From: TPA_inf: Saccharomyces
Lineage: Eukaryota
Reading direction: 5' to 3'
NCBI GenBank assembly: GCA_000146045.2
Contig: BK006938.2
Location: 1,440,001 to 1,504,000, forward strand
DNA length: 64,000 nt
The notes beneath the pieces are model-generated. The model worked only from the letters and a program-made list of their open reading frames with translations, searched no databases and was not told the origin of the DNA. Shown in pieces: positions 5,468 through 54,585 of this stretch (position 1 is the stretch's first letter; each line of letters begins with the position of its first letter). Position numbers and translations under genes: made by a program.

Positions 5468-5678
5468 TTTAACACCCACTGCAGAAACAAAGAAAATGAA
5501 AGAGATGTATACAGTAGGACGACCAATAAATCTGAATAGCGCACCAAACTGAAAGAGAAGAATAGAGCAAACACCTGCCAAAGAAAAGCCCAAGTGTGAA
5601 AGGTCTTTTCTCAACTATGGCTTGATTCCTTTTATATTTTTTCCATTTTGCAACAGCGCGTTGAGCTTGGTCGAGCTT

Positions 5679-28444: not shown

Positions 28445-28901
28445 AATGTGCAATATTTGATATTATATAAGCTACTTGAGAAAGCGATAGTTTTTTTTTC
28501 TTACACAAAAAAAAAAAAACATAAAGCACCTATAACTCTCAACTTTGAAGAAGCACGAAAGGAATATGTTTAAATCAACAGAAATGTGAAAAAAATCGGT
28601 TATATATACAGAATCCGATTCTTTCTAACATCAAAGAGGTGGGGGAAGAAGGGACTCAAAAAAGAAACGACACTGCACAACCCGAGCCAAACTGACATAC
28701 GAACACTAAAACCGATTTCCGAAAAAAACTTCAAATTTACATTTCATTGTCCGTCTGCCATCGCATCATCGCCTTCATCTCTAAGAGTTGCCGTGCCTTT
28801 CCATCCGCTTTCTTTTCATGCGGCGTTATTCTTTTTTCCTATTTTTGATGGTCCCTGTGCCGTTTCTTTTTCATGTTCACCGGTTTTTGGCGCCGCATAC
28901 C

Positions 28902-28920
28902 GTACGGCGGGGCACTTTTG
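28902..28920. promoter_or_regulatory. GCCG-N9-CGGC dyad (candidate Stp1/Stp2 UASaa) in the GNP1/SMT3 divergent promoter
   Basis: gccgcataccgtacggcgg with the perfect palindrome CCGTACGG at its centre, ~460 bp upstream of the GNP1 ATG. A separate CACGTG lies at 29135-29140. Confidence 0.3.
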
Positions 28921-29297
28921 AAACGTTTTTGTGCATCCTGATGCCGTTTTCAAGGATCGCAAGCACGTCGCATAATACGGTAATGCCGAATTAAGGCTAC
29001 GTCGTCATAGTAGGTTAGTCATGCGCGTTGGAAAAAGAAATGACCAACGCGTTGATTACGTAGTCCCCAAGGAATAATGCTTTTGAAAGTGAAAAAAAAA
29101 AATAAAACTGAAAAAAGCCATGCTGTTTCCATCACGTGCATGTCACGTTTTTGCCGCCGAACTCTTTGATCATGTGATATGAATATGTTGGGTTACCCAG
29201 CTTTGCCAACACGCGCCGTCGGAAGGTGTTCAGGAAGCAGGAAAAGAGCAAAACACCAACAATCAAACAAACGAACACATTCTACTCTTTTAGTTGA

Positions 29298-34973: not shown

Positions 34974-36476
34974 TTATGCCACCAGAGCACACAAAGCTGC
35001 GCCAACACCGGACCCATCTTTGGCTAGACGCAAATGTATCTTACGTTCACCCTCAGTGCCAATTGGACTTAATGCCAAAGCATGTCTCAGCATGGATCTG
35101 AATCCAGGATAGTATTCGATGACATAACCGTCAAAACCAATTTCTACCTCACCGTGATATCTTTTGTTCAAAGCGTTTGTCTTGATTAGGATGGCGGCAA
35201 TCGGAACGGCTGCTAGATATGCAGACCTTCTCGTAATGGAACGGACCAGATTTTGAATTGCTTTACGTTCTTCAAAAGTGGTCGGTAGCCTCAAACTCTG
35301 CAAAAACGACAATTCAGTTTCACGCAAGTTTGTCGAATCATCGATTTCAATCCTGGAAAGAACTTCACTGCACAATTGGAAAGGAGTCTTTAAACGGTGA
35401 GGTAATTGATCGTAATTACGATACTGTCCCAAGATTAAGCCCCTTGCATGCAAGTCCACCAGGATGTTCCTTAACAGCTCACCCAAGTACATGCCGGAAA
35501 TTCTTTTTTCAAATAGATGGTAACCTGGATTTGGAGAAAATTTTTGGTCAATATCGATGTCATACTTTGTAGCAGACAAATGTTTCAATTCATTGTCGAA
35601 AGAACCCCATTCGATGTTGATGCACATTTGGGTTTTTCCTTCATGCAGCAGTCTTGTTCTGAGCTCATCTGGTAGCTTCTTGATGTTTTCAATATCCTCC
35701 ATATAGCAACCGTTAGTACCAGTACCAAAGATACAACCAATGACAGGCTCGCTAATCTCACCAGCACTCGATGGACGAGAGCCTGAAGTGTAGCAGTGGG
35801 ATAGGAAAGTGCCAACCGTGTCGTTGGTCAAAGCTACCACATTAATCATAGAGAGCCCCTGAATGTCTAATTGCTCCTGGTATAACCTCACGACATCCTT
35901 GCCGACCGTGTCTTCAATCTTGAAGCTTTTGGTCCATCTGATTAAAGTACCGGAACTCAAAGAGGTTTGGTCAACGGGATATGAGAAGGTAAATCCCATT
36001 TTCAAAGGTTTTATGTTCTCCCCCGTGGACTTCAACAACTCAGGATGATGCTTCCTAACGAAGGCCCTTGTACGGCGACCCAGGTAGCTAAACAGCTCCT
36101 CGCTGGTGACATCCTTGTCATTTAGATATTCTTCCGGAATCTTAGACTTCAATTGCTGCATATCAAAGGTTCCGTCACCATTCAAAGTCACAGAACACAC
36201 TCTGAAGTGAGTCCCACCTAAATCTGCAGCCAGCAAAACACCACGTTCCGTCCCATTGGGCAAACTGGTTACATATGTAGGGATCATGGGTAGACCCTTG
36301 TCCACCGTCTTTTCTTCGCCTACAGAGGTGTTATTCAACCCCTTTTCCATACATTCAATGAAGTACGCTGTTAGTTCGTCCAACTTTGCTGCATCAACCT
36401 GCAATGAGGAGCAGATCTCAACCACTGCATCTTCCAATGCCTCAGCATTGACTTTATGTAAATTTTCAAATGACAT
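34974..36476 (-). CDS. EMI2: hexokinase-family (glucokinase-like) protein Emi2 (500 aa)
   Basis: Hexokinase signatures DLGGTHFRV and GTGTNGCYME. The track ORF is over-extended by 16 codons; ATG at 36474-36476 (MSFENLHKVN). Confidence 0.85.
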   Translation of the reverse strand: MSFENLHKVNAEALEDAVVEICSSLQVDAAKLDELTAYFIECMEKGLNNTSVGEEKTVDKGLPMIPTYVTSLPNGTERGVLLAADLGGTHFRVCSVTLNGDGTFDMQQLKSKIPEEYLNDKDVTSEELFSYLGRRTRAFVRKHHPELLKSTGENIKPLKMGFTFSYPVDQTSLSSGTLIRWTKSFKIEDTVGKDVVRLYQEQLDIQGLSMINVVALTNDTVGTFLSHCYTSGSRPSSAGEISEPVIGCIFGTGTNGCYMEDIENIKKLPDELRTRLLHEGKTQMCINIEWGSFDNELKHLSATKYDIDIDQKFSPNPGYHLFEKRISGMYLGELLRNILVDLHARGLILGQYRNYDQLPHRLKTPFQLCSEVLSRIEIDDSTNLRETELSFLQSLRLPTTFEERKAIQNLVRSITRRSAYLAAVPIAAILIKTNALNKRYHGEVEIGFDGYVIEYYPGFRSMLRHALALSPIGTEGERKIHLRLAKDGSGVGAALCALVA

Positions 36477-37238
36477 TACTGTGTATCTATGATTCGATTC
36501 TTGTACAATTCTTCCTTGATACACTGATATCTGTTTCTATTTAAACTTCCTATAAGTATGAGACGTACAAAAGAACACGAGACAAGATGAGATTTTACAC
36601 TTACACAGAATCGACTTTATATAATCCCGAATACATGTTTCCCCCCCCTGCATCGCAAGCATAATAGAATTCGACGACCCGATCTTCTTCCTCTGTCTTC
36701 CACACACACAAACACTAATTCACTCTCACTCTCTCACTTTCCCTTTCGACGACACACACAAAAAGACTTTCTGGATGCCCCGCGTTTTTTGTCACTTGAT
36801 TCTTCGAACAAAGACGCAGGCAACTACCCCTGAAGGGCCCACCCGAAAGTAGTTGCTACTGCTCGTTGCGGTGGCTGCCAGAGTGGCGACGTAGCGTTGC
36901 GTTGTGGCTAACATTGGTGAGACAACCCGATTAAATTACTTAATGGGCTCTCCCACCGCCTTTGCACCCAGTGACAGCCATTTTGAAGATAGCATCGGGC
37001 TGGCTTCCAAATAAAATCTAGGTCGTTTCTATTAAGTTCGTTTCGTTATTTTTCTGTCTTCGCGGCGGACACGCAAGCCGACGACGACGAGGTTTAGTTG
37101 CATTTTGGCTATCATAAAAGAAATGGGCTTGTCGCAACGGGATCAGGACCAAGAACAGGGGTGCTGAGACTACTACTGTAACTGCGACCGACACAGCGTG
37201 CGAAACTAGGGAAGTAAAAAGGTATAGGAAGAAGAACT

Positions 37239-38357
37239 ATGTTTAGAATAGCTAAAAACCTCGTACGGACTTTTGAGCAGAGCGTGCAAGATACCCTGGC
37301 ACTCTCGCAGGACTCGAGCAATCTGGACGCTTTCTTTCAGTCTATACCACCAAATTTGTTGTCTGCTCAGTTGGAATCACCCGTAGATGCGGTTTCTGAA
37401 GGTGTTAAGCACACCAACGTCAATGAAACGCTTTCCGGTCTCCGCATTGTTTGGGTGGACGAGATGCAGTTCCAACTGCAGTCCTTTTTCGACTATATAG
37501 TAGGTTTCAATGATGATCCGGTGCCGGTGGTCAGTAATCAACACGGATTTTCGTACCCAGATTACCGTCGTATCACATCCATCTTCAATGAACACTGTGG
37601 CCGAACTTTGAAGGTCAACATATGGTCAGCTAAAGGAGGCACGTTCAGAGACGAGTATATCAGCATTATATCGAAGGAGAGCGACGATTTGGACGATGTT
37701 TCTCTAAACCATGACGAGAGGAGGCCATCTAGTGGGGAAGCGCACCAGTTCCAAGCACTCGGGTTCAAAGTCCAATGGACGCCTTTGATAGCTTCCACTT
37801 TCACATACCATATCCTGAACGTGAACATCCCAGATGGACCCGCCCAATCGGCAGGGCTCATCCCAGATGAAGACTACATTATCGGCTGCCAAGATGGCCT
37901 GTTGGCCACGGGAGGGGAGACGCTTTTACAAGATATTGTTAGATCAAGAGCAAACTACGATCTGGTCCTTTATGTCTACAACAAAGTTTCTGACTGTGTG
38001 AGACCAATCACAGTTCATATAGGTCCCGACGGCAGGTTGGGTTGCAACGTTGGATACGGGTTTCTTCACAGGATTCCAACAGTAAAGCACTGTCCACAAC
38101 AAGCACAGCAGCAGGGGCAAGATGACAACCCTGTTCCTGTTCCTGTTCCAGTAGAATCTGAGACGGCTTTTGTGCCATCAGCATTCACAGCACCACCGGT
38201 GCCAACAAAGAAGAAATCAAAAAATAAAAAGGGTACCCAGCCATTGGCAATGGATGACTATTTTAATGAAGGCAGAGATAAGTCATCTACCGCTGCGAAG
38301 TCAGCAGAATCTGACATCCTCGCCCCACCACCACAAAAACAGTCATCCTCTGATTAA
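37239..38357 (+). CDS. GRH1: GRASP-family Golgi protein Grh1 (372 aa)
   Basis: 372 aa. The N-terminal tandem GRASP/PDZ region is followed by a Pro-rich tail (NPVPVPVPVE). Confidence 0.85.
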   Translation: MFRIAKNLVRTFEQSVQDTLALSQDSSNLDAFFQSIPPNLLSAQLESPVDAVSEGVKHTNVNETLSGLRIVWVDEMQFQLQSFFDYIVGFNDDPVPVVSNQHGFSYPDYRRITSIFNEHCGRTLKVNIWSAKGGTFRDEYISIISKESDDLDDVSLNHDERRPSSGEAHQFQALGFKVQWTPLIASTFTYHILNVNIPDGPAQSAGLIPDEDYIIGCQDGLLATGGETLLQDIVRSRANYDLVLYVYNKVSDCVRPITVHIGPDGRLGCNVGYGFLHRIPTVKHCPQQAQQQGQDDNPVPVPVPVESETAFVPSAFTAPPVPTKKKSKNKKGTQPLAMDDYFNEGRDKSSTAAKSAESDILAPPPQKQSSSD

Positions 38358-45565: not shown

Positions 45566-47038
45566 TTAAACGAATCCTTTCTTTATTGCTTCAATTCTTA
45601 GTGAGATCTCTTCTATAAAAACCTCATTAAATCCAGGAACGTTTGCCTCAGTTTTAATGAATTGCTTTAACATTTCATTTACGTATTTTCTTGTTTCATC
45701 GTCGCGCGCACGATCATACATTCTGTTGAGAATATGAGATACAATGTTTTTCAAGTAGTCAAACTTTTCTATCTTCAACGCCTGAATATCGTTCTTTTTA
45801 TGCTTCTTATTATGATTAGAGAGAGGAACTATTTCGGTCTCTGCTTGAGCATTTGGGCAGCCTGAATCTATATCCATTCCTGAATCAAGCTCGAAAACTG
45901 GTTGCGTACATTTTCTAAATGATGAAGAACTTGGGTTGGTTATCGGCGTTACAGTTTGCCCATGAAGTAAATAAGGACTTTCCATATTTAAAGATGATGT
46001 TGGAGAGTCTTGTGTAATGGGAGATAATTCCTCTTTGGAAATTTGTGTTGTGCTTAGTCTTGTCGATTCAAAATTCCAAAATTCCTTTCCCCTCACTGTG
46101 TTGCTGTTTTTATACAAGCGATTTTGAAGAGGGTATTTGGGAACTTTTGTATATCTCTCCTGAACCTTTTTCTGTTTAATTAGATCAACATCACTTTTCA
46201 AGTTCGTTATGGTGATATTCTTAACAAATTCAAATGATAACAAGTTATATGCCGATGGCCGATCAGCAGGTGTTTTAACAAGACAACCAGCTACGAAATC
46301 CTTTGCTGCATCCGAAAAGGGACCTTGTAATTTTGGAGGCTTCCTTTTTGGTAAGTTAGTCATAACTTTCATAGGATCATATTTAGATAATGGGGGTAAG
46401 CCCTTGAGTAACTCATAGGTGGTGATACCCAAGGACCATATATCTGCTTTCTCATTATACCCATCAACTTCGCAGCAAACAACTTCCGGAGCCATCCAAT
46501 ACGGCGTTCCTACAAAAGTGTCCCTTTTCAAAGTGGAACGAATGTGGCCACTTACTCCGAAATCACCCAACTTAACCATACCTTCTTCATTTAGTAAAAT
46601 ATTAGCTGCTTTGATATCACGATGAATTTTCCTTTGCTCATGCAGGTATTTCAAACCCAAGGTGACTTCATGAATAATGAAGGAAACTTTTTCTTCAGGC
46701 AAACCGTTGACGTAACTTCGCTTCAGTAAATCTGAACATGATCCACCGCCGCAATATTCCATGACAATCCACATAGAGACATCTTCTAACATTGTTGCAA
46801 TATAGTTTGTAATAAGAGGAGATTTCAATTCCGCCAGAAAAAAAATTTCCTGTGCTAACAGTTCAATGTCTTCGTCGGAATGCTCCAGGTTGACCACCTT
46901 AATTGCCACAATTTCTTGCGTAACTCTATCCACTGCTTTATACACATCACCAAAGTTACCTCTGCCAATACATGATTGGATGGAATATAGCTTCGATGGA
47001 GGGGTTCTTGACCTAATTGATATTTCTTTGCTTTCCAT
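45566..47038 (-). CDS. SPS1: STE20-family sporulation kinase (490 aa)
   Basis: N-terminal kinase domain (GRGNFGDVYKA, HRDIKAANILL, DFG). Confidence 0.9.
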   Translation of the reverse strand: MESKEISIRSRTPPSKLYSIQSCIGRGNFGDVYKAVDRVTQEIVAIKVVNLEHSDEDIELLAQEIFFLAELKSPLITNYIATMLEDVSMWIVMEYCGGGSCSDLLKRSYVNGLPEEKVSFIIHEVTLGLKYLHEQRKIHRDIKAANILLNEEGMVKLGDFGVSGHIRSTLKRDTFVGTPYWMAPEVVCCEVDGYNEKADIWSLGITTYELLKGLPPLSKYDPMKVMTNLPKRKPPKLQGPFSDAAKDFVAGCLVKTPADRPSAYNLLSFEFVKNITITNLKSDVDLIKQKKVQERYTKVPKYPLQNRLYKNSNTVRGKEFWNFESTRLSTTQISKEELSPITQDSPTSSLNMESPYLLHGQTVTPITNPSSSSFRKCTQPVFELDSGMDIDSGCPNAQAETEIVPLSNHNKKHKKNDIQALKIEKFDYLKNIVSHILNRMYDRARDDETRKYVNEMLKQFIKTEANVPGFNEVFIEEISLRIEAIKKGFV

Positions 47039-47400
47039 TTTGTGCTATTTTCTTTTGTTGTTTAGTAAATGAATTAGCTAGTAAAAAAACTAAATTTAAA
47101 AAGCAAATGCTGGTTTGCTTTCTTTTGAGAAATGTTTGCTAAGACAACTGACTAGCCAGGTGTTCACTAAATCGATAATATTGAAAATGGCAAAATAAGA
47201 AAAAAAAAGAAGAGAATTAGCTGGCTTTTTTTGGATAGGAAATATTAAATGAAGCAGTTGGAACCAAGATAATAAACAAAAACAGTATATTAAGTGACTC
47301 TTTAGTATATATCTGAACTAACAAGTAAAATATCGATGTTAGAAATGGTTACAATAGAAGAAAGTAGTGTCATTCTTTCGCGTCAAAAAAAAAAAATGGA

Positions 47401-47409
47401 ATTTGTGTC
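47401..47409. promoter_or_regulatory. MSE (GACACAAAT on the minus strand) in the SPS1 promoter
   Basis: Plus strand atttgtgtc, ~365 bp upstream of the SPS1 ATG. Confidence 0.4.
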
Positions 47410-47541
47410 TTTTTCGTTTTTATGTGTCATTTTTTTTTATCCCTGATGCCGCATTGTTCCGAACCTGGGACAGCTCCGAAATATAACTTGAGGAAAAAGT
47501 ATTAGAAAAGGGAAAAAAATACAGTTAAATTATCATATATG

Positions 47542-48990
47542 TTATTTTTTGTCCTTTTTGGCCAATTTTAAAGACTTATGCATTGTTAATAAGTTTGTTG
47601 GGGACATCAAATTTTGAGAAGACTTAGGAATGGAGCTCAAACTCCACCTTTTACTTGCTGAGGCACTTCTTTCAGGTATGTTAACTCTCAAATCGTGTTT
47701 CTTATTGTAGGACGAAGCTGAATCTACATTTGAATGCATATTTAAATGCGGCCCTGATCTTGGACGAGAAGTATTTACAGCTTGGAATGTTCCGTACATC
47801 TCCAACTTAGTTTCCCAATATTCTAAAACCTTTGGAGACCAATTCGTAGTAATCTTCGGTAAATTATCTATATGAATACCATTGCACAATAAAAATTCTG
47901 TAATAAAAAAAATGGGCGTTCCATCAACAATTTCATAGTGCTTTAGGGAATATTGAAAAATGGAAGAATGGTTTAGATCATTCTGCTCTTTTTCGCTTGC
48001 CGTCAATTCTCTTAGGGAATATTTACTTTGGGCGATGGCTCTTTGCATCATGAAAACACTATCTAAATGGATAGCTTTAATTAAAGACTTCAAAGAAGCC
48101 TCTCTGCCTTGGTTGCTGTCGATAACAAACTTTTTAAATTGATACTTATCAATAATGAATTTGGATCTTTCCGAGTCATCAGAATTTGCAGTTATTTTTT
48201 TAACTGGAAAGTTCCTGAGATTGCTTTCATAAATGGCATTAACATTACTATTGGAAACATTATTTTGTAAAAGATGCATCAACTCTAACGAGGTGAAATT
48301 ATCCAGCGTTAAAGATCTAATTTTGGAGATATGTGAACCCAGAGATCGATGAACGCCCGAACATTTGATACACAATATACACAATAAATTGATTGACACC
48401 CATTCTACTGTTGCGGTGCTACCGCAGTCACAACACTTCAAATTAGATTTATCAATTTTGCGCACGATTGATAGCAGTTCGTCTCTATTGGAGGCTCCCG
48501 CATTAGCAAAAGAGAAATGCTGTGTATGCTGTTTGGAGGAATCTGTTTTTGTAGGAATACGGTTATTACTATTACTGTTGCTACTGCTACTATGAATGGG
48601 ATGAGTTTGATGATTGATGTGATGAGAATGCGTAGATTTGTGTTGGCTCCCACTAAGACGGGTTGATAAATATGTAAATGACAGTTGGGGTGAACGAAAT
48701 GGAAATCCTGATGGTAAAGAAGGAGGTATTTGTAGTAATATCAATGATTCTTTCGCGGCCATTAATAAAGCGATGCTTTTTAAAATAACACAATATACCT
48801 CAAAACCTCGATCATCCTCGCAGCGGTTCGTTTGAAATTTACATCGAAGAGATTTAAGAAGAATATTAGTTAACTTTAACGCGTTGTTGCACCATGATGG
48901 ATACTGTGCTTTTGATGCTGTTCTTGCTACTGTTCCTTTACTGAACAAAGGCACAACATTTTTGTTGATATCAGTAGTATAAAAATCCAT
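47542..48990 (-). CDS. AGE1: ArfGAP-domain protein Age1 (482 aa)
   Basis: ArfGAP C4 zinc finger CCDCGSTATVEWVSINLLCILCIKCSGVHRSLG. Confidence 0.8.
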   Translation of the reverse strand: MDFYTTDINKNVVPLFSKGTVARTASKAQYPSWCNNALKLTNILLKSLRCKFQTNRCEDDRGFEVYCVILKSIALLMAAKESLILLQIPPSLPSGFPFRSPQLSFTYLSTRLSGSQHKSTHSHHINHQTHPIHSSSSNSNSNNRIPTKTDSSKQHTQHFSFANAGASNRDELLSIVRKIDKSNLKCCDCGSTATVEWVSINLLCILCIKCSGVHRSLGSHISKIRSLTLDNFTSLELMHLLQNNVSNSNVNAIYESNLRNFPVKKITANSDDSERSKFIIDKYQFKKFVIDSNQGREASLKSLIKAIHLDSVFMMQRAIAQSKYSLRELTASEKEQNDLNHSSIFQYSLKHYEIVDGTPIFFITEFLLCNGIHIDNLPKITTNWSPKVLEYWETKLEMYGTFQAVNTSRPRSGPHLNMHSNVDSASSYNKKHDLRVNIPERSASASKRWSLSSIPKSSQNLMSPTNLLTMHKSLKLAKKDKK

Positions 48991-49597
48991 TATTGATGGA
49001 ACATCCAGAAAAATGTATTCAAAATGACTGGTACAGCTACCTTAACCACTCTGCCTCAATGTGATTTTTATCCTCTTTTTCGCTCAAATTTTTACTTTTC
49101 TTCTCTCTTCGTCAAGTACTATTATAACGACAGCGATAGGAAAAAAAACCAACATCGGACGAGAATAAATAATACTTTAGCGTTCAAAATGACATTCCTT
49201 TAAAATTCGATATGAAATTTTCCGCGATTAATTCGCCGAGAATACGACAAAAAAAAAGATAAACATCAGAAAATTCTATTATTAGATTAGATTTTATATT
49301 AGATAATGAATTAATACAGGTAATAATTATAGAGAGGAAATAAAAATAAACAGATAAGTTATTTACATCTTCTAACTAATATTCCATTACAAGTGAACGA
49401 ACATGAAAAGATCATATAAAACCCTTCCAACATATTTTTTTTCCTTCTTTGGTCCCTTCAAGGAAAGAGCGGTCTTTCTTCTTGTTCTATAATAATATTA
49501 TTAAAAAAGCACATAAAAACTTGATTGTGTAGCGATAATAAAAAAATTTTTTCGATATTATAGGAGTATAATGTCTCTAAACTCAAAATTAAAGAAC

Positions 49598-49798
49598 TTA
49601 GAATAAGAAAGCGACACCGGCAGCGACGGCAGCACCGAAGACACCAGCACCCAAAGCGTTGGAAGCAGCAGCACCAGTGGAGATCTTGGTGCTGGTGGTG
49701 TTGGAACCGTTGGTACGGTTGGAACCATTGGTAGAAACGTTAGCAGCTTGGACAGCGGCAACAGTAGCGAAGGCAGCGACGATGGTCTTGAATTGCAT
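49598..49798 (-). CDS. YDR524C-B: 66-aa predicted secreted/GPI-like mini-protein (YDR524C-B)
   Basis: [18 protein letters not shown] signal peptide, an NxS/T-rich core, and a hydrophobic C-terminus ([17 protein letters not shown]) preceded by small residues (omega-site-like). Confidence 0.6.
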
Positions 49799-50051
49799 TG
49801 TTTTGTTGATGATTAGTGTTGATTGAAACTTATGTTTAATGATGATTTTCCTCTAAAATCAAAAACAATATTAACTAATAAAGTAAATAATACAGTAGGA
49901 GAAGATGGAAAAGAAAATCAAGAATTTCTCGAGTTCCTTATATATGAGGAGAAAAGCCAGGAAAACCACCGCGATGACACACAGCACCATATCTCATGTA
50001 ACAAACGTGAAAAAAGCGATGATTTTTTTTCTGCTTTCTTTTTCTCATTTC

Positions 50052-50460
50052 TCAAGCGGATATTCCGCTTGCAAAAAGAAAAGGCGTGGCTCTGGTCTTC
50101 GCTATTTTGGAAATAAACTTTGGCGTCCTACGCCCAGAAGCGGCCAAAGCGGCCAATCACGCCCGAAGACGGGACCGCACGGCTCCCAACGAGTCGTTTT
50201 TTTGGAACTGAAAAAGGCCCAACGTTGGGCCTAGGCCCTTACCGCGCCCATTTCGGAAACTGCATTACTTTTTCGGGACGTATTCTCGGGAAATAAGCAG
50301 GTCCAGATCCGCGTAGCATGAATGGGGCGCCAAAACAGTCGCGGGTAACGAAAGAGCGCAACCACGCGTATATTCCGGGCCGGTGAGGGGCAACGCGCAT
50401 TGTCCCGGGGCGATATAATCCATGTACCGGAACCCGCACTTTTTCGACTTTCTTTCCCCT
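50052..50460. other. CpG-rich, ~55-60% GC island with nested perfect palindromes between YDR524C-B and SNA2
   Basis: More than 30 CpGs in ~330 bp, in a genome of about 38% GC. Contains the palindromes caagcggatattccgcttg (50052-50070), ggcccaacgttgggcc (50215-50230) and gggcctaggccc (50226-50237), plus a Reb1 site cgggtaa (50341-50347), an MCB acgcgt, a CCAAT box and CCCGGGG. Confidence 0.6.
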
Positions 50461-50595
50461 TTTCCTGTCTCCTATTGTGCGAGAAAGGTTTGATTGACAA
50501 GAGATCTTTACTGATCGATCTTAGTTAGTCCTCGAATAAGCATTTTGCAAGTACCAGTCATCGTATTAGAGAACATACAACTTTAGAATTACACT

Positions 50596-50835
50596 ATGCA
50601 CGCCCGCGACTGGTTTTTAGTTTTTATTGCAATTTTCATTCCTCCCTTAGCAGTCTGGCTAAAAAGAGGTTTTTTTACCAAGGATCTGCTCATTAACTTT
50701 CTGTTATTTTTACTAGGGTTTTTCCCTGGTCTGATCCATGCTTTGTACGTGATCAGCTGTCATCCATATGAGGAGAACGAGGCCCGGTACTCACACCTCT
50801 CCTCCTCGGATGATAACTATGGTAGTTTAGCATGA
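50596..50835 (+). CDS. SNA2: Pmp3/UPF0057-family small membrane proteolipid (79 aa)
   Basis: MHARDWFLVFIAIFIPPLAVWLKRGFFTKDLLINFLLFLLGFFPGLIHALYVI with two TM helices. Confidence 0.8.
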   Translation: MHARDWFLVFIAIFIPPLAVWLKRGFFTKDLLINFLLFLLGFFPGLIHALYVISCHPYEENEARYSHLSSSDDNYGSLA

Positions 50836-51093
50836 GTGACTCTTTCTACGTTATCCTCCTCCGCAGAATTTCGTAATAAGTGATGTGTGGCTCTTTTGCT
50901 ACCCTTTTTTTTTCATTTCTTTCTTTTTTTTCTATTTTATTTTTTCTTTTTCATTTTTCGGTACTTCTATGTACCTGAAATGAATAATAATGTAATGGCA
51001 AGCCATCTCATCGCTGTCGGCTAAGTAAATCTATAGTTTAATATATTCATTTTCCCTCATTCAAAGAAGATAAATCACTCTGCCACCATCGTA

Positions 51094-52413
51094 ATGGACT
51101 TACTGGGCGATATAGTGGAGAAAGATACATCTGACTCTGTTGAAAGTAATGACAATGGCACTCTTAGTACCAACAACTGTGGAACGGGATTTCCCGAGTT
51201 GTACAAACCCAAGAAAATATCATCTTGGAAGGAAAGACTAAGAGAAAAAAGAGCCCAAAAGAAAAAAACTAGTGGCAAGGATGCTGAAAAGCAACAAACG
51301 AGTACAGACGCCCCACTATCCGAGGCAAAATCTATCCATAATGAAAATATTAAAGTTCTGCAGGGAATGAGTGATGAACAAATCGTGCAAGAACGTGAGG
51401 ATCTGTATAACTCTTTAGATCCCAAACTGATTGCCAAGCTATTGAAAAACATAAATAAAAGAGCGAAGGACGAAAACAACACTCCATTATTTGCAGAAAT
51501 AGAAGGCGCTTCTGGTACCTGGGTAGGTGGCAACAAGCAAGGCATATACGATCTACCACCGTTAGACGATGAAGATGTAGACGTTGCCTTAGAAATTAGG
51601 CCTATGTTAGGCAAAGATGCAAAACATGTTCAATTTGAAGAAGCAGGAAAAGAAAAAGACGTGGAAGAAGAAGCAAAAACTAATGATGACGTCGATGATA
51701 TCGCACCCTTAGATTTCCAGATGGCACAATGCATTGATCATATGAAAAATGAAGAGCTATTCAAAGACGTTCATTTTATCAAAGAGGAGAGCCAAAATGA
51801 AATCAATTTAGAGAAACTTGATATAAATGATCCTAATTTCAACGATAAATTACACGAAAAATACTTCCCTGATTTGCCCAAAGAGGTCGACAAATTAAAA
51901 TGGATGCAACCGGTTCAGCAAAAAACAGACAAGAATTACATCATTGAAGACGTATCTGAATGTAGGTTTGACTTTAATGGCGACCTTGTTCCACCCACAA
52001 GACAAATAGACTCTACCATTCACTCAGGGTTGCACCATCACAGCGACTCGCCTGAACTCGCCGGTTACACCATAGTGGAGTTAGAACATTTAGCAAGATC
52101 CACTTTTCCTTCTCAAAGGTGCATTGCTATACAAACTTTGGGGAGAATACTTTATAAGCTAGGCCAAAAAAGCTACTACCAGCTAGTGCCAGAAATAGAT
52201 GCAGACACATACAAGGAAGACGGAAGCATATCGAACGTTATGGATAAGATCTATTCCATGTTTTGGGACTTGATTAAAGACGGAAAAGTCATCGAATCCT
52301 TAGAAATCTCCTCTGATGAGAAATTCACTAGAAATTTGTCAGTCAGAAATTATGCTATTGATGCACTTTGGTTATGGAAACAAGGCGGTGGGGACTTCCG
52401 AACCAAGAAATAG
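51094..52413 (+). CDS. RBA50: RNA polymerase II-associated protein Rba50 (439 aa)
   Basis: 439-aa acidic protein. Position and length match YDR527W. Confidence 0.75.
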   Translation: MDLLGDIVEKDTSDSVESNDNGTLSTNNCGTGFPELYKPKKISSWKERLREKRAQKKKTSGKDAEKQQTSTDAPLSEAKSIHNENIKVLQGMSDEQIVQEREDLYNSLDPKLIAKLLKNINKRAKDENNTPLFAEIEGASGTWVGGNKQGIYDLPPLDDEDVDVALEIRPMLGKDAKHVQFEEAGKEKDVEEEAKTNDDVDDIAPLDFQMAQCIDHMKNEELFKDVHFIKEESQNEINLEKLDINDPNFNDKLHEKYFPDLPKEVDKLKWMQPVQQKTDKNYIIEDVSECRFDFNGDLVPPTRQIDSTIHSGLHHHSDSPELAGYTIVELEHLARSTFPSQRCIAIQTLGRILYKLGQKSYYQLVPEIDADTYKEDGSISNVMDKIYSMFWDLIKDGKVIESLEISSDEKFTRNLSVRNYAIDALWLWKQGGGDFRTKK

Positions 52414-52474
52414 ATAGAGAAAAAAATAATAGTACATACAGGTGCGCCGACCAGCGCCTATTCATAAAAACAAG

Positions 52475-53024
52475 AATAATGTGTCTCTTTGAGTCATGTT
52501 CCTTAGCTTCTTTTTTAAAAAAACTGTCTCAGGTATTTTCGCTTCTTTGATCTCCCAATCTCCATATCCCAACCACGTTCATATACCTCAAGCCGATTTC
52601 AACCAAACTTGAACGAAAAACTCAGACAGGTCTGGTAAAATATCTGCAATGAAGTACGCACAACTCAATTGGTATTAATTAATATAGAACATATTAAATG
52701 TAGAGGAGAGAAAATTAAATTACATGGGAAACCAATCTTGAAGGTCCAATAAAGTGAGATGTGCATGGATGAATTATCCATGCAAAAGCAAAAACGAAAA
52801 AGTCGCAACCTCAATCATGCCTTTTCTCTCCAAATAACTTTTAGAACAAAAGTCAAATATAGGAAAGGGAAAATATCATTCTCCAAAGCAAACATTAAGT
52901 CACTGATCAACAGAGAACAATGGTTTATCTTTGCACATTGACACATTCATCGAGGGTTTCAAAGCACTTAAAAAGAGCATGATTCAGTTCAAAAAAATGA
53001 TCCTCGACAAACTTAAGTTGTGCA
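52475..53024 (-). ncRNA. SNR84: candidate H/ACA box snoRNA (snR84 by recollection) in the ORF-free RBA50-HLR1 gap
   Basis: A 2.2-kb gap with no ORF longer than 60 aa. In minus-strand sense the sequence ends GAGACACAUUA at 52477-52487, that is ACA followed by 3 nt. A TATA-like tttatatgg lies just upstream (minus sense) of 53024. The identity and exact ends come from memory of the chrIV annotation and were not verified by folding. Confidence 0.35.
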
Positions 53025-54585
53025 ATTCACATCAGCATATCCATATAAAGCTTATAGTGTGATGATGAGTACTCTCATTAACTAGCTCTGTTATTCAAAC
53101 TTTAAACTTCGGATACTTGACTGCTCTCTTCGTTTGTAAGTAGCTTGATTGTAGTTACATCGTCGTTCTCATCGCATCTTTTTTTATTAGTTATGAAAAA
53201 TTTTTCACTTTTCACCTAGTTAGGATACCCGGCTGGATTCTTTTGTACTAACCTCTATGGATTTCGTGGTCCTCTCATGTCACGTCAAAATTTCAGATCA
53301 TATGTCAGGGTAACATTTATGCACTCGGAGATTGTCAAACTTATTGACGCAAGCATTTACTATTTTTCCGCACAAGCACCATGTGTGATAACATGCAGAT
53401 CGCCCATCTGAGCAGTAATATCTAGTCATTATATAGTCTATCAAATGTTATACTTCCAGAATTTTTCGCCTCGGCCCAAACATGTACATTTTCTTGGTGG
53501 CTTTTTTATTCTGGCTTTCTTTTCCTCTAACGTTCAACATGGTTGAAAATGCTCTCAAGTCAAATAATAAAACACAATCATAAGAATTCAAAGATGTGCA
53601 TGAGAACTCTTAACAATACATATTTTTACTGAAACACTTTGGTTAGCATCTTGTGATTACTTTATTTATATAACCTAGTCGCCCCTCCCCTGTCTGTACT
53701 GTTCTTGCAGGTAAATTCAGGAAATAATACATCCTCCACGACTACAACATGTGCAAGTACTATCCATAATAGGTGTAATCATAGAGAAGCAGTCCTAAGG
53801 AAATAAAATCAAAGAAATTAGGTAAAGGTTGGGTATTGATAGATGAAAATGTTTTTGCAAGTTAAAAAGGAAAATATGCACATTCTCTTATAACCAAATT
53901 CGTCTGACATCGATATATCTTTTCATATAAAGTTCTTCCCCTTTACCATTCACTCCATGATGTCGTACCTGTTACACTACAGTGCCTGCTTGATTGCGCA
54001 TTCATAATGGCTGTACACCGTTTACCCAATGCATTCTCGTCTGCAAAGAGAAGGATATACATCTTTTTCTGGTAATAACATGTACCGATTAGGAAATTAA
54101 GACCCTGCTTTCACGCGTGCTCCTACCATTTCCGGTAATAAAAGTTCGGGTAAGATTTCTTTTCCAAACGAGCTTACGTGTCGCATCGACAAATATGGCG
54201 AGTGCTCTTATATAAGTAGGCAACATCTAAAAAGAATGGACATCTTTTTTTTCAGTGTGAAGACGTTATCGTGTGAGTATTAATAAAGAGTTGTAATTTG
54301 ATAATAAGATAACCAAGGAGTAAATATATAAAGTTCACCACTGCTCTGTTATCTCTTTTTTATAGAGTTCGGAAATCCTCACAGATTATAACCAACTAAT
54401 CGTCATTCATTTCAAAAAAAAAAAAAAAGGAAGAATTAGAGCTCTTCCACAATAGTGGCTATTCCAGGCATAATTTCAAATCAAGTGGCAATTTTACGCT
54501 CCTCATTCATTTTCCTGTATTATACTTTAATTATTCTTATTTCGCTTTTTTTCTCAAGGTGACCTGTTGTATCACGTTAGCTGAA

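Follow-up and report, generated by a model that had tools for sequence, protein, structure and literature searches.

The GC- and CpG-rich island upstream of SNA2 in S. cerevisiae (positions 50052-50460) is probably the GC-rich core of a conserved Pol II control region common to YDR524C-B on the minus strand and SNA2 on the plus strand. All coordinates are positions in the analyzed stretch of 64,000 nt of contig BK006938.2, which is referred to as the window. The genes around the island are AGE1 (ArfGap), YDR524C-B, SNA2 (Pmp3), RBA50 and snR84. YDR524C-B, the left gene of the divergent pair, has its coding sequence at 49598-49798 on the minus strand with the ATG at 49798, and SNA2 (Pmp3 family), the right gene, at 50596-50835 on the plus strand with the ATG at 50596. 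The island lies between these divergent genes together with candidate core promoter elements that face outward. Read as a conserved shared promoter, the island itself would be ordinary, namely the compositional extreme of a described yeast class. The analysis also removes a false lead, as it speaks against a hidden structured RNA, against foreign DNA and against a conserved function of the palindromes found in this region. A literature search on YDR525W, YDR524C-B, SNA2, the composition of DCG1 and Spo11 at the locus found nothing describing the island.

Composition, conservation and coding potential

The sequence-only reading had called attention to a block of about 57% GC with more than 30 CpGs, and such a block is present. 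The 409 bp of the island have a GC content of 54.5%, 40 CpGs and a CpG observed/expected ratio of 1.32, compared to 37.6% GC and a ratio of 0.81 for the entire 64 kb. The island ranks top of the window, since only 2 of 6360 sliding 409-bp segments match its GC content or CpG count and both overlap it. Relative to segments mostly outside long ORFs its z scores are about 4.0 for GC and about 5.0 for CpG. The next best non-ORF segments reach a GC content of 0.506 (36.7-37.2 kb) and 33 CpGs (28.6-29.0 kb), respectively. As these come fairly near, a compositional comparison of the kind that had been proposed, made within the 64 kb, shows the island as the extreme of a tail in both GC and CpG and not as a lone outlier.

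The island fits the formal criteria for vertebrate CpG islands (>200 bp, GC >50%, CpG observed/expected >0.6). Budding yeast is not known to methylate cytosine, and unlike vertebrate CpG islands the yeast island has no methylation-driven CpG loss to escape. The likeness is therefore purely numerical, all the more so because the background ratio is already 0.81.

Closer to home, a class of GC-rich divergent promoters with fortuitous ORFs has been described in Saccharomyces and Lachancea (bioRxiv 10.1101/119768), and the island looks like an extreme member of this class. Like the promoters of Vakirlis et al. (bioRxiv 10.1101/119768), it is located between divergent genes, has a GC content far above that of ordinary intergenic DNA and contains ORFs that are fortuitous and poorly conserved (API2 and those of S. 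mikatae and S. kudriavzevii discussed below). It differs from them in its extreme composition (54.5% GC and 40 CpGs in 409 bp) and in being unusually conserved over its whole length. Two milder GC-rich examples are present in the same 64 kb, at 36.7-37.2 kb and 28.6-29.0 kb.

Conservation was assessed in an alignment of five species, S. cerevisiae, S. paradoxus, S. mikatae, S. kudriavzevii and S. arboricola. The island makes up the SNA2-proximal two thirds of a conserved non-coding block of 585 bp (49916-50500), which comprises the region between two TATA elements and both of these elements. The invariant fraction is 0.56-0.58 in this block, 0.30-0.31 in the flanking 5'UTR-side DNA, 0.36 at SNA2 third codon positions and 0.87 in the YDR524C-B coding sequence; the block is conserved at the level of the neighbouring RBA50 coding sequence. 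It contains 18 invariant blocks of 6-19 bp between variable bases and indels of 1-10 bp, and the island part of the alignment has 32 gap columns. The block is conserved in short motif-sized pieces, non-coding and tolerant of indels, as for a Pol II bidirectional promoter/UAS region. What counts against a promoter is that conservation is rather even over about 550 bp, exceeding typical yeast promoters. The orthologous island is found at the same syntenic site in all five species, with a GC content of 0.53-0.56 and 28-40 CpGs. An nhmmer profile of the block matched in Saccharomyces only and gave no significant match at the loci of K. africana, N. dairenensis, N. glabratus, T. globosa, Z. mrakii and L. 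thermotolerans. Blastn against plasmid and phage collections found no similarity to the island.

Two overlapping dubious ORFs had been noted across the island and both exist. YDR525W/API2 (109 aa) is located at 49905-50234 on the plus strand and an ORF of 89 aa at 50231-50500 on the minus strand. Their presence, the ORFs of 100 and 115 aa called at the API2 position in the S. mikatae and S. kudriavzevii assemblies, and a composition unlike that of the surrounding DNA could be taken to mean that the island encodes a protein, either API2 or the antisense 89-aa product, or that it is non-yeast DNA. We consider this hardly credible. Neither ORF shows coding signals: codon periodicity is absent from the five-species alignment (invariance of 0.56-0.59 in all three phases), the block alignment contains non-triplet indels, and API2 is split into pieces of at most 65 aa in S. 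paradoxus and S. arboricola. Those called in S. mikatae and S. kudriavzevii can be aligned to API2 only with frame changes (38-41% identity). Furthermore, Pfam gave no match for the 109-aa or the 89-aa ORF, nor in any of the six frames of the block. The coding reading was rejected on the phase-flat conservation, the ORFs broken in sister species and the negative Pfam result. Both ORFs are read as fortuitous products of GC-rich DNA that is poor in stops. The suggestion of a non-yeast compositional origin fares no better, as the island occurs in synteny and with a similarly high GC content in five Saccharomyces species and has no plasmid, phage or Pfam match. Horizontal acquisition likewise finds no support, as the distribution among these five species is not patchy and the plasmid and phage collections gave no match.

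Candidate promoter elements

The two TATA elements face outward with about 470 bp between them, and the 5'UTR-like DNA beyond each of them is poorly conserved. The putative TATA box for YDR524C-B (TATATAAG, 49937-49944, minus strand) is located about 140 bp upstream of its ATG, and all five species share TTATATA at 49938-49944. The TATA-like element that would serve SNA2 (GGGCGATATAAT, 50408-50419, plus strand) lies about 180 bp upstream of its ATG. Here, GGGCGATATAA is invariant in the five species and GATATAAT at 50412-50419 of the plus strand is conserved. Similar sequences are found upstream of SNA2 in L. thermotolerans (GGCGATATATA) and K. africana (CCTATAAAT).

All motif strings quoted in the sequence-only reading were located at their given positions. 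Reb1 binds TTACCCG, and a predicted Reb1 core site (TTACCCGC, 50341-50348, minus strand) matches this consensus, with CGGGTAA at 50342 on the plus strand; none of the five species deviates from GCGGGTAA at 50341-50348. In K. africana, CGGGTAACGA is present 107 bp upstream of SNA2 and is followed by CCGGGG and then by TATA. An MluI/MCB-type ACGCGT (50364-50369) is kept in four of the five species and reads ACGCGG in S. arboricola; SNA2 is among the genes tabulated as changed in msa1 msa2 mutants (PMC4894574). CCCGGGG starts at 50404. The sequence AGGGGCAACGCGC (50386-50398, plus strand) contains AGGGG and CGCGC, which we take to be putative STRE-like and Rsc3-type sites, respectively. AGGGGCA is invariant in the five species and AACGCGCAT is kept in four of them.

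Further away from SNA2, a CCAAT box (GGCCAATCA, 50151-50159, plus strand) is kept in four species and reads GGCCGATCA in S. kudriavzevii, where CCAATCA, kept in the other four, is lost. The SfiI-like string GGCCAAAGCGGCCAATCACGCC is present at 50142, and its GGCC-N5-GGCC pattern is not conserved across species. The longest invariant block of the alignment comprises 19 bp (AAAAGAAAAGGCGTGGCTC, 50074-50092, plus strand). A metagenome scan with this 19-mer yielded two S. cerevisiae contigs (99.7-99.9% identical), seven chance matches and no new species. A second block of 27 bp (TAAGCAGGTCCAGATCCGCGTAGCATG, 50294-50320, plus strand) shows agreement of at least four of the five species throughout. 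We know of no factor that matches the 19- and 27-bp blocks, which counts against a promoter.

If the island is the core of a shared promoter region, it would act through a series of short sites bound by proteins. Its end next to SNA2 (about 50340-50420) would be the SNA2 core promoter, in which the Reb1 site, the CGCGC/ACGCGT/AGGGG-type sites and the CCCGGGG-TATA element would hold open a GC-rich stretch that otherwise favours nucleosomes and would fix the start site. Upstream sites that either gene could use would be provided by the distal part (about 50052-50340), i.e. CGG-N5-CCG, the 19-bp AAAAGAAAAGGCGTGGCTC, CCAATCA and AAGCAGGTCCAGATCCG. Every factor assignment is a matter of consensus matches. 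The analysis shows the conservation, architecture, synteny and composition of the block and its lack of coding and RNA-structure signals; which factors would bind it, that its chromatin would be open and why its GC content stays high are inferred. GC-rich DNA usually favours nucleosomes, and an open hub is therefore not the default expectation.

The island shares with Reb1/RSC-type general regulatory factor promoters an invariant TTACCCG about 70 bp upstream of the TATA-like element and a CGCGC near to it, and the order of Reb1 site and then TATA is also found upstream of K. africana SNA2. However, such promoters are usually AT-rich with poly(dA:dT) flanks, whereas the predicted sites of the island lie in a long GC-rich stretch. 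The same motif pair is present in another promoter of the same 64 kb (ACGCGT at 54113 and CGGGTAA at 54147). The regulatory hub that had been suggested is borne out in outline: the TATA elements face outward, conservation is about twice that of the flanks, the Reb1 core is invariant, and the MCB-type site and CCAATCA are kept in four of five species. The palindromes do not belong to the conserved elements.

Palindromes and RNA structure

The three dyads that had been described are all present at the positions given for them. Dyad A (CAAGCGGATATTCCGCTTG, 50053-50071) has 8-bp arms and a 3-nt loop and contains CGG-N5-CCG. Palindrome B (16 bp, GGCCCAACGTTGGGCC, from 50216) overlaps palindrome C (12 bp, GGGCCTAGGCCC, from 50227), and together they span 50216-50238. 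Palindrome B is the sole 16-bp palindrome in the 64 kb. Shuffling the island 5000 times produced a palindrome of 16 bp in 0.5% of cases, a stem of 8 bp with a loop of 3 nt in 0.7% and a palindrome of 12 bp in 10%, and never all of them together.

In the five-species alignment, which had been proposed as a check of the palindromes, dyad A is perfect in S. cerevisiae and S. arboricola and has one or two mismatches in the other three species. Its right arm (TCCGCTTG) does not vary, and all five species keep CGG-N5-CCG. An S. cerevisiae metagenome contig carries G>T at 50059, which breaks dyad A and destroys its CGG half-site; this single contig was counted against a promoter function. Palindrome B is perfect in S. 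cerevisiae only and down to 2 of 8 Watson-Crick pairs in S. arboricola, and just two species, S. cerevisiae and S. paradoxus, have a perfect palindrome C. Within B and C, AGGCCC (50233-50238) alone is invariant. No compensatory changes were found in dyads A, B and C across the five species, and each substitution elsewhere breaks or weakens a pair. The calculated energy of the DNA hairpin is -8.6 kcal/mol in S. cerevisiae versus -4.1 kcal/mol in S. arboricola, where the sequence folds differently. With pairs broken or weakened in other species and with no compensatory change, the alignment does not bear out the idea of palindromes as functional elements. Judging from the sequence comparison, the perfect palindromes most likely arose incidentally in S. 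cerevisiae, as refinements of GGCCC/GGGCC repeats that are partly conserved.

The palindromes had also raised the possibility of a structured non-coding RNA from the island, or of a regulatory transcript with hairpins that matter. In a single-sequence fold the plus strand indeed gave z = -2.9, with none of 100 shuffles as stable, and the three dyads are improbable by chance in S. cerevisiae. In addition, RT-PCR on oligo-dT cDNA has been reported to yield a product over 49919-50123 (PMC1181813), the one piece of evidence for a transcript, which would be polyadenylated. A portion of the block is thus transcribed, and the block may have a role through transcription. Nevertheless, a functional RNA structure is very unlikely. 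At E<=10, a cmscan of 47000-54000 against Rfam found snR84 alone, apart from a chance 18-bit match at 49868-50040, and ARAGORN found no tRNA, in line with the earlier statement that the island is not tRNA-like. The minus strand gave z = -0.46, and a T-run at 50197-50203 is not conserved. RNAalifold on windows of the island in five species gave z values of -0.01 to -3.2 and SCI values of 0.56-0.70, which resemble the coding control (z of +1.3 to -4.9) and are far from the structured windows of snR84 (z to -11, SCI to 0.94). The alignment-based analysis did not uphold the plus-strand signal, which was dismissed. With Rfam and tRNA searches negative, RNAalifold values in the range of the coding control and no covariation, the earlier proposal of a structured RNA finds no backing. 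The snR84 gene of the same 64 kb provides a comparison, as it too is a conserved non-coding stretch of a few hundred bases. It differs from the island in an Rfam score of 535 bits and in the z and SCI values just given, against no match, z of -3.2 or weaker and SCI of at most 0.70 for the island.

The ancestral DCG1 locus

In T. globosa, Z. mrakii, L. thermotolerans and E. cymbalariae, DCG1 is located between the YDR524C-B-like gene and SNA2/RBA50, and locus-tag adjacency places it likewise in eight Lachancea species. The island thus occupies the ancestral locus of DCG1, where this gene resided before its move to the DAL cluster. Assembly of the DAL cluster through gene relocation after the whole-genome duplication (WGD) has been described (PMC4629796, which summarizes Wong and Wolfe 2005). 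Compared with other vacated loci of DAL-cluster genes, the island sits exactly where non-WGD yeasts have one of the moved genes, but no sequence similarity ties it to DCG1. The literature searched made no mention of remnants or of the composition of the vacated DCG1 site.

It could be argued that the island goes back to the former DCG1 copy, which stayed behind when the gene was copied into the DAL cluster and decayed, part of it being kept for regulatory elements in or next to it. Syntenic slot and strand context match exactly, and so does the composition, with GC 0.545 and a CpG observed/expected ratio of 1.32 in the island compared to 0.50-0.67 and 0.88-1.32 in DCG1 at the old slot. Where DCG1 remains, the called coordinates leave a DCG1-SNA2 spacer of just 38-188 bp, so that SNA2 control sequences may extend into DCG1. 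Still, we regard such a descent as improbable. A profile of 32 DCG1 sequences gave only scattered, inconsistent matches in six frames of the five islands (E >=1.7), whereas positive controls in hmmsearch reached 1e-99 to 4e-104. Tblastn with the T. globosa protein, blastn with word size 7, nhmmer in both directions and six-frame Pfam searches were all negative. The relocation is older than the Saccharomyces-Kazachstania split, and a neutral relic should therefore be gone. Moreover, the slot of N. dairenensis has no comparable island, and that of K. africana shows only a bump of about 200 bp (GC 0.49-0.52) just upstream of SNA2.

At the old site in non-WGD yeasts, no gene of the locus is richer in GC than DCG1 (GC 0.50-0.67, GC3 0.53-0.88), compared to GC 0.35 and GC3 0.34 for the relocated S. 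cerevisiae gene. The slot was GC-rich already when DCG1 occupied it, so that the unusual composition did not originate in Saccharomyces; the sequence-only reading had missed that the GC anomaly is an old property of the slot. In T. globosa and L. thermotolerans its GC3 is 0.86-0.88 versus 0.57 for the neighbouring RBA50. The GARP/FYMINK ratio of the DCG1 proteins is 1.1-2.8 at the old site versus 0.41-0.57 in relocated copies. Tentatively, we suggest that the slot between the YDR524C-B and SNA2 orthologues has been GC-rich since before the WGD, whatever its content, although this is doubtful. In non-WGD yeasts, pressure on the slot may raise DCG1 to a GC3 of 0.86-0.88 and skew its amino acids; after leaving, DCG1 may have fallen to 35% GC, the vacated slot remaining a non-coding island of 55% GC. 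The cause of such a GC identity could be a very stable recombination hotspot or another local bias; alternatively, the vacated gene may have been recycled into a promoter. If true, a lasting GC identity of the slot would amount to a natural relocation experiment in which local base composition is set by position, and a clean one, with DCG1 GC-rich at the slot in non-WGD yeasts and AT-rich once relocated in Saccharomyces, and the slot still GC-rich. It could help to separate position effects such as recombination-linked bias from gene-intrinsic causes of composition and would also show the fate of a site that is vacated when a metabolic cluster forms.

The same data can be used to argue that the island is for the most part a side effect of GC-biased conversion at a long-lived meiotic hotspot, most of its length having no sequence-specific function. 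The GC excess tracks the slot and not the gene, as seen from the GC3 values of DCG1 and RBA50, and the old-site DCG1 proteins are richer in GC-encoded amino acids. Yeast hotspots are described as promoter-located, GC-rich and evolutionarily stable (bioRxiv 10.1101/119768, citing Lam and Keeney 2015), which fits the island, and promoters of the class of Vakirlis et al. are often recombination hotspots. G/C sites are also preferentially kept in the island (0.60 invariant versus 0.53 for A/T sites), which is the opposite of all other tested regions except for the intergenic stretch upstream of AGE1 (0.40 versus 0.38). The same preference also speaks for selection on a control region. A literature search yielded no paper linking the locus to Spo11 maps.

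We nonetheless consider a hotspot by-product unlikely. A/T and G/C positions are both conserved well above neutral levels in discrete blocks, which conversion bias alone does not predict. Furthermore, the AT-to-GC excess expected from biased conversion is not seen, which also sets the island apart from the class of Vakirlis et al. Polarization of substitutions by parsimony in five taxa, a crude and biased method with small counts, gave 35 S>W changes at 213 sites (0.16) and 27 W>S changes at 177 sites (0.15), with neutral comparators at 0.19-0.25 and 0.17-0.28, respectively. As both per-site rates are at or below those of the neutral comparators, purifying selection fits the island.

Setting and composition of the island

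The window lies on the right arm of S. cerevisiae chromosome IV, and its genes were named from open reading frames (ORFs) and homology. The island (50052-50460) is located inside a 797-bp spacer with YDR524C-B (49598-49798, minus strand) and SNA2 of the Pmp3 family (50596-50835, plus strand) diverging on either side; AGE1 (47542-48990, minus), RBA50 (51094-52413, plus) and snR84 (52490-53026, minus; Rfam, 535 bits) are further neighbours. Expression of YDR524C-B is broad and repressed by heat (PMC3161974), an oligo-dT RT-PCR product spans 49919-50123 (PMC1181813), and a yml081w mutant showed lower H3K18 acetylation at the 'YDR525W promoter' (PMC2713269).

All motif and dyad strings quoted in the sequence-only reading were recovered at their positions, and the CpG-rich GC island it described stands, with 40 CpGs and a GC content measured here as 54.5%. 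Its CpG observed/expected ratio is 1.32, as compared to 0.81 (and 37.6% GC) for the whole 64-kb window. In a scan of the 64 kb the island was the highest 409-bp window for both GC and CpG count, with z values of about 4 (GC) and 5 (CpG) against windows mostly outside long ORFs. Further GC- or CpG-rich spacers are found 5' of the 372-aa ORF at 37239 (GC up to 0.50, 29 CpGs) and at 28.6-29.0 kb (33 CpGs). Thus, the island is the extreme of a tail and not a lone feature. The former spacer (36700-37238, GC about 0.50, 29 CpGs per 409 bp) has divergent ORFs on both sides (34974-36524, minus; 37239-38357, plus) and is a milder member of the same class; the latter, an upstream spacer (28586-29060, GC 0.45, 33 CpGs per 409 bp), has the top CpG observed/expected ratio of the window (1.5-1.6).

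Conservation, coding capacity and RNA structure

RBA50 proteins led to the orthologous regions in S. paradoxus, S. mikatae, S. arboricola and S. kudriavzevii, which were then aligned. Between 0.56 and 0.58 of the positions in the block 49916-50500, which contains the island, are invariant over the five species. This equals the level of RBA50 coding sequence in the 13-kb alignment and is far above that of unconstrained spacers at 53.1-53.9 kb (0.16-0.27); the stretches adjoining each start codon reach 0.30-0.31 and SNA2 third codon positions 0.36. All five species carry an orthologous island with 53-56% GC and 28-40 CpGs, arguing that it is maintained and not foreign. Its G/C sites are conserved at 0.60 versus 0.53 for A/T sites; elsewhere A/T sites are conserved above G/C sites, except in the AGE1-upstream spacer (0.40 G/C, 0.38 A/T).

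The block shows no codon periodicity (invariance 0.56-0.59 across the three phases), 32 gap columns fall within the island alignment, and no Pfam domain was found in the island ORFs or in six frames. The API2 ORF (YDR525W, 49905-50234, plus) is interrupted in two species, S. paradoxus and S. arboricola, and ORF calls from S. mikatae and S. kudriavzevii align to it only if the frame is changed. A protein-coding island was rejected on account of the missing periodicity, the split ORF and the lack of domains. The non-yeast compositional origin proposed earlier was abandoned in view of the five-species orthologues and the absence of matches to the plasmid and phage collections searched. We consider a coding or foreign island extremely improbable; it is maintained, non-coding DNA.

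The three dyads seen by the sequence-only reading are present and jointly unexpected (0 of 5000 island shuffles), and the 16-bp palindrome B occurs once within the 64-kb window, but they are not conserved across species. Dyad A (50053-50071) has no mismatch in S. cerevisiae or S. arboricola but 1-2 mismatches in the other three species. Among the overlapping palindromes B and C (50216-50238), B is perfect in S. cerevisiae alone, with 2 of 8 Watson-Crick pairs left in S. arboricola; for C, S. paradoxus is the only other species with a perfect copy. The hairpin that B/C can form as DNA weakens from -8.6 kcal/mol in S. cerevisiae to -4.1 kcal/mol in S. arboricola. Over 1238 positions, an S. cerevisiae metagenome contig shows 4 differences from the window; one, G>T at 50059, falls in the CGG half-site of dyad A, and another is C>T at 50249. 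The conserved features are sub-strings (TCCGCTTG, CGG-N5-CCG, AGGCCC) rather than the palindromes themselves.

The structured non-coding RNA suggested before was likewise rejected. As a single sequence, the S. cerevisiae plus strand folds somewhat better than its shuffles (z -2.9; the minus strand does not), but no Rfam or tRNA match was found in the island, dyads A, B and C show no compensatory change across the five species, and 120-nt alignment windows over the island gave z -0.01 to -3.2 and structure conservation indices of 0.56-0.70, which is also where the RBA50 coding control falls. Structured windows of the snR84 control reached z -11 and an index of 0.94. A structured RNA is therefore very unlikely.

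Two other observations concern the flanking genes. The AT-rich 3'UTR side of YDR524C-B (49300-49597) is 0.92 invariant over the five species, more than every coding region of the 13-kb alignment; this gene is mentioned in a preprint on Mrn1/Nab6 3'UTR targets. RBA50 proteins labelled in the database as S. cerevisiae YJM248/YJM107x (P0006, P0007) are just 85% identical to the window copy and equally near S. paradoxus, which suggests that some strains may carry an S. paradoxus introgression at this chromosome end.

Anatomy of a probable promoter

Some 140 bp separate the YDR524C-B ATG from a conserved consensus TATA box, TATATAAG (49937-49944, minus strand), and some 180 bp separate the SNA2 ATG from a conserved GGGCGATATAAT (50408-50419). 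Outward of both, conservation falls in a 5'UTR-like manner. The region between them holds invariant blocks of 6-19 bp: ATGACACACA, TCCGCTTG, AAAAGAAAAGGCGTGGCTC, ACTTTGGCGT, AGACGGG, GGAACTG, AAGCAGGTC/AGATCCG, CCAAAAC, AGGGGCA and GCGGGTAA, a Reb1 core by consensus. When blocks with agreement in at least four of the five species are included, a PAC-like GCGATGA is added; MCB, CGCGC and CCAATCA are each present in four species as well. Upstream of K. africana SNA2 (L005, about 5495-5535), the string GCCGGGTAACGACATCTCCGGGGCCCTATAAAT contains a Reb1 core, CCGGGG and TATA in the Saccharomyces order with shorter spacing, and probably represents a deep promoter footprint; L. thermotolerans has GGCGATATATA ahead of SNA2. 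These parallels indicate that the part of the island next to SNA2 is an old core promoter of that gene. Factors on the rest of the island are putative, assigned by consensus site.

This anatomy points to a promoter common to YDR524C-B and SNA2, and we regard the island as probably the GC-rich core of this conserved bidirectional promoter. The regulatory region proposed earlier is retained in outline for its TATA elements and invariant Reb1 core, not for its palindromes. Fortuitous ORFs are a feature of GC-rich divergent yeast promoters as a class (bioRxiv 10.1101/119768); the island likewise lies between divergent genes but is extreme, and adds an extreme example to a class already described. 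Another conserved promoter stretch, 54000-54200 (0.68 invariant), holds the same motif pair as the island, ACGCGT at 54113 and CGGGTAA at 54147.

History and composition of the slot

T. globosa, Z. mrakii, L. thermotolerans and E. cymbalariae carry a gene for an Asp/Glu racemase, identified as Dcg1p by database search, exactly between a YDR524C-B-like gene and SNA2/RBA50, on the same strand as SNA2. Judged by locus tags, DCG1 is two genes away from RBA50 in 8 Lachancea species, and in E. cymbalariae the tags of the two are adjacent. The Saccharomyces and K. naganishii genes are on a different chromosome; that of S. cerevisiae belongs to the DAL cluster, where it is flanked by DAL7 and DAL2. 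The cluster itself formed after the whole-genome duplication, through relocation of genes (PMC4629796; PMC3419248). The island thus sits on the vacated DCG1 site. This position would suit descent from the old DCG1 copy, but profile HMM (six frames), tblastn, blastn and nhmmer searches detected no DCG1 similarity in it, and we hold such descent to be rather unlikely. In the Logan contig of Z. mrakii (L009, 4290-5402) the gene caller fragmented DCG1; one frame aligns to the DCG1 profile over its full length (E 1e-99), which shows the gene to be intact in that contig.

At its old site DCG1 is the top GC gene of each of the four 13-kb loci, with GC and GC3 of 0.65 and 0.86 in T. globosa, 0.53 and 0.58 in Z. 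mrakii, 0.67 and 0.88 in L. thermotolerans, and 0.50 and 0.53 in E. cymbalariae; GC3 of the neighbouring RBA50 is 0.41-0.57. After relocation, S. cerevisiae DCG1 (L011, 4001-4735) has a GC of 0.35 and a GC3 of 0.34, the minimum of the DAL cluster. At the protein level there was a marked move from Gly/Ala/Arg/Pro to Phe/Tyr/Met/Ile/Asn/Lys; the GARP/FYMINK ratio is 1.1-2.8 for copies at the old site, against 0.41-0.57 for those that moved. The GC excess over the surroundings is +17 points for the island and +18 for DCG1 in T. globosa and L. thermotolerans. It thus follows the slot and not the gene, suggesting that some local force keeps the slot GC-rich, either selection on GC-rich sites or GC-biased conversion at a stable promoter hotspot; this slot composition is the sole part possibly of interest to specialists.

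Such conversion is a known property of GC-rich divergent yeast promoters, which also give rise to fortuitous ORFs (bioRxiv 10.1101/119768), and like the slot-bound GC excess it would fit an island that is mainly a hotspot by-product. However, a crude polarised count gave no excess of AT-to-GC changes (27 versus 35 GC-to-AT), so that we find this origin possible but unlikely. By the same crude count both rates are at or below those of neutral comparators, which leans towards purifying selection on the island.
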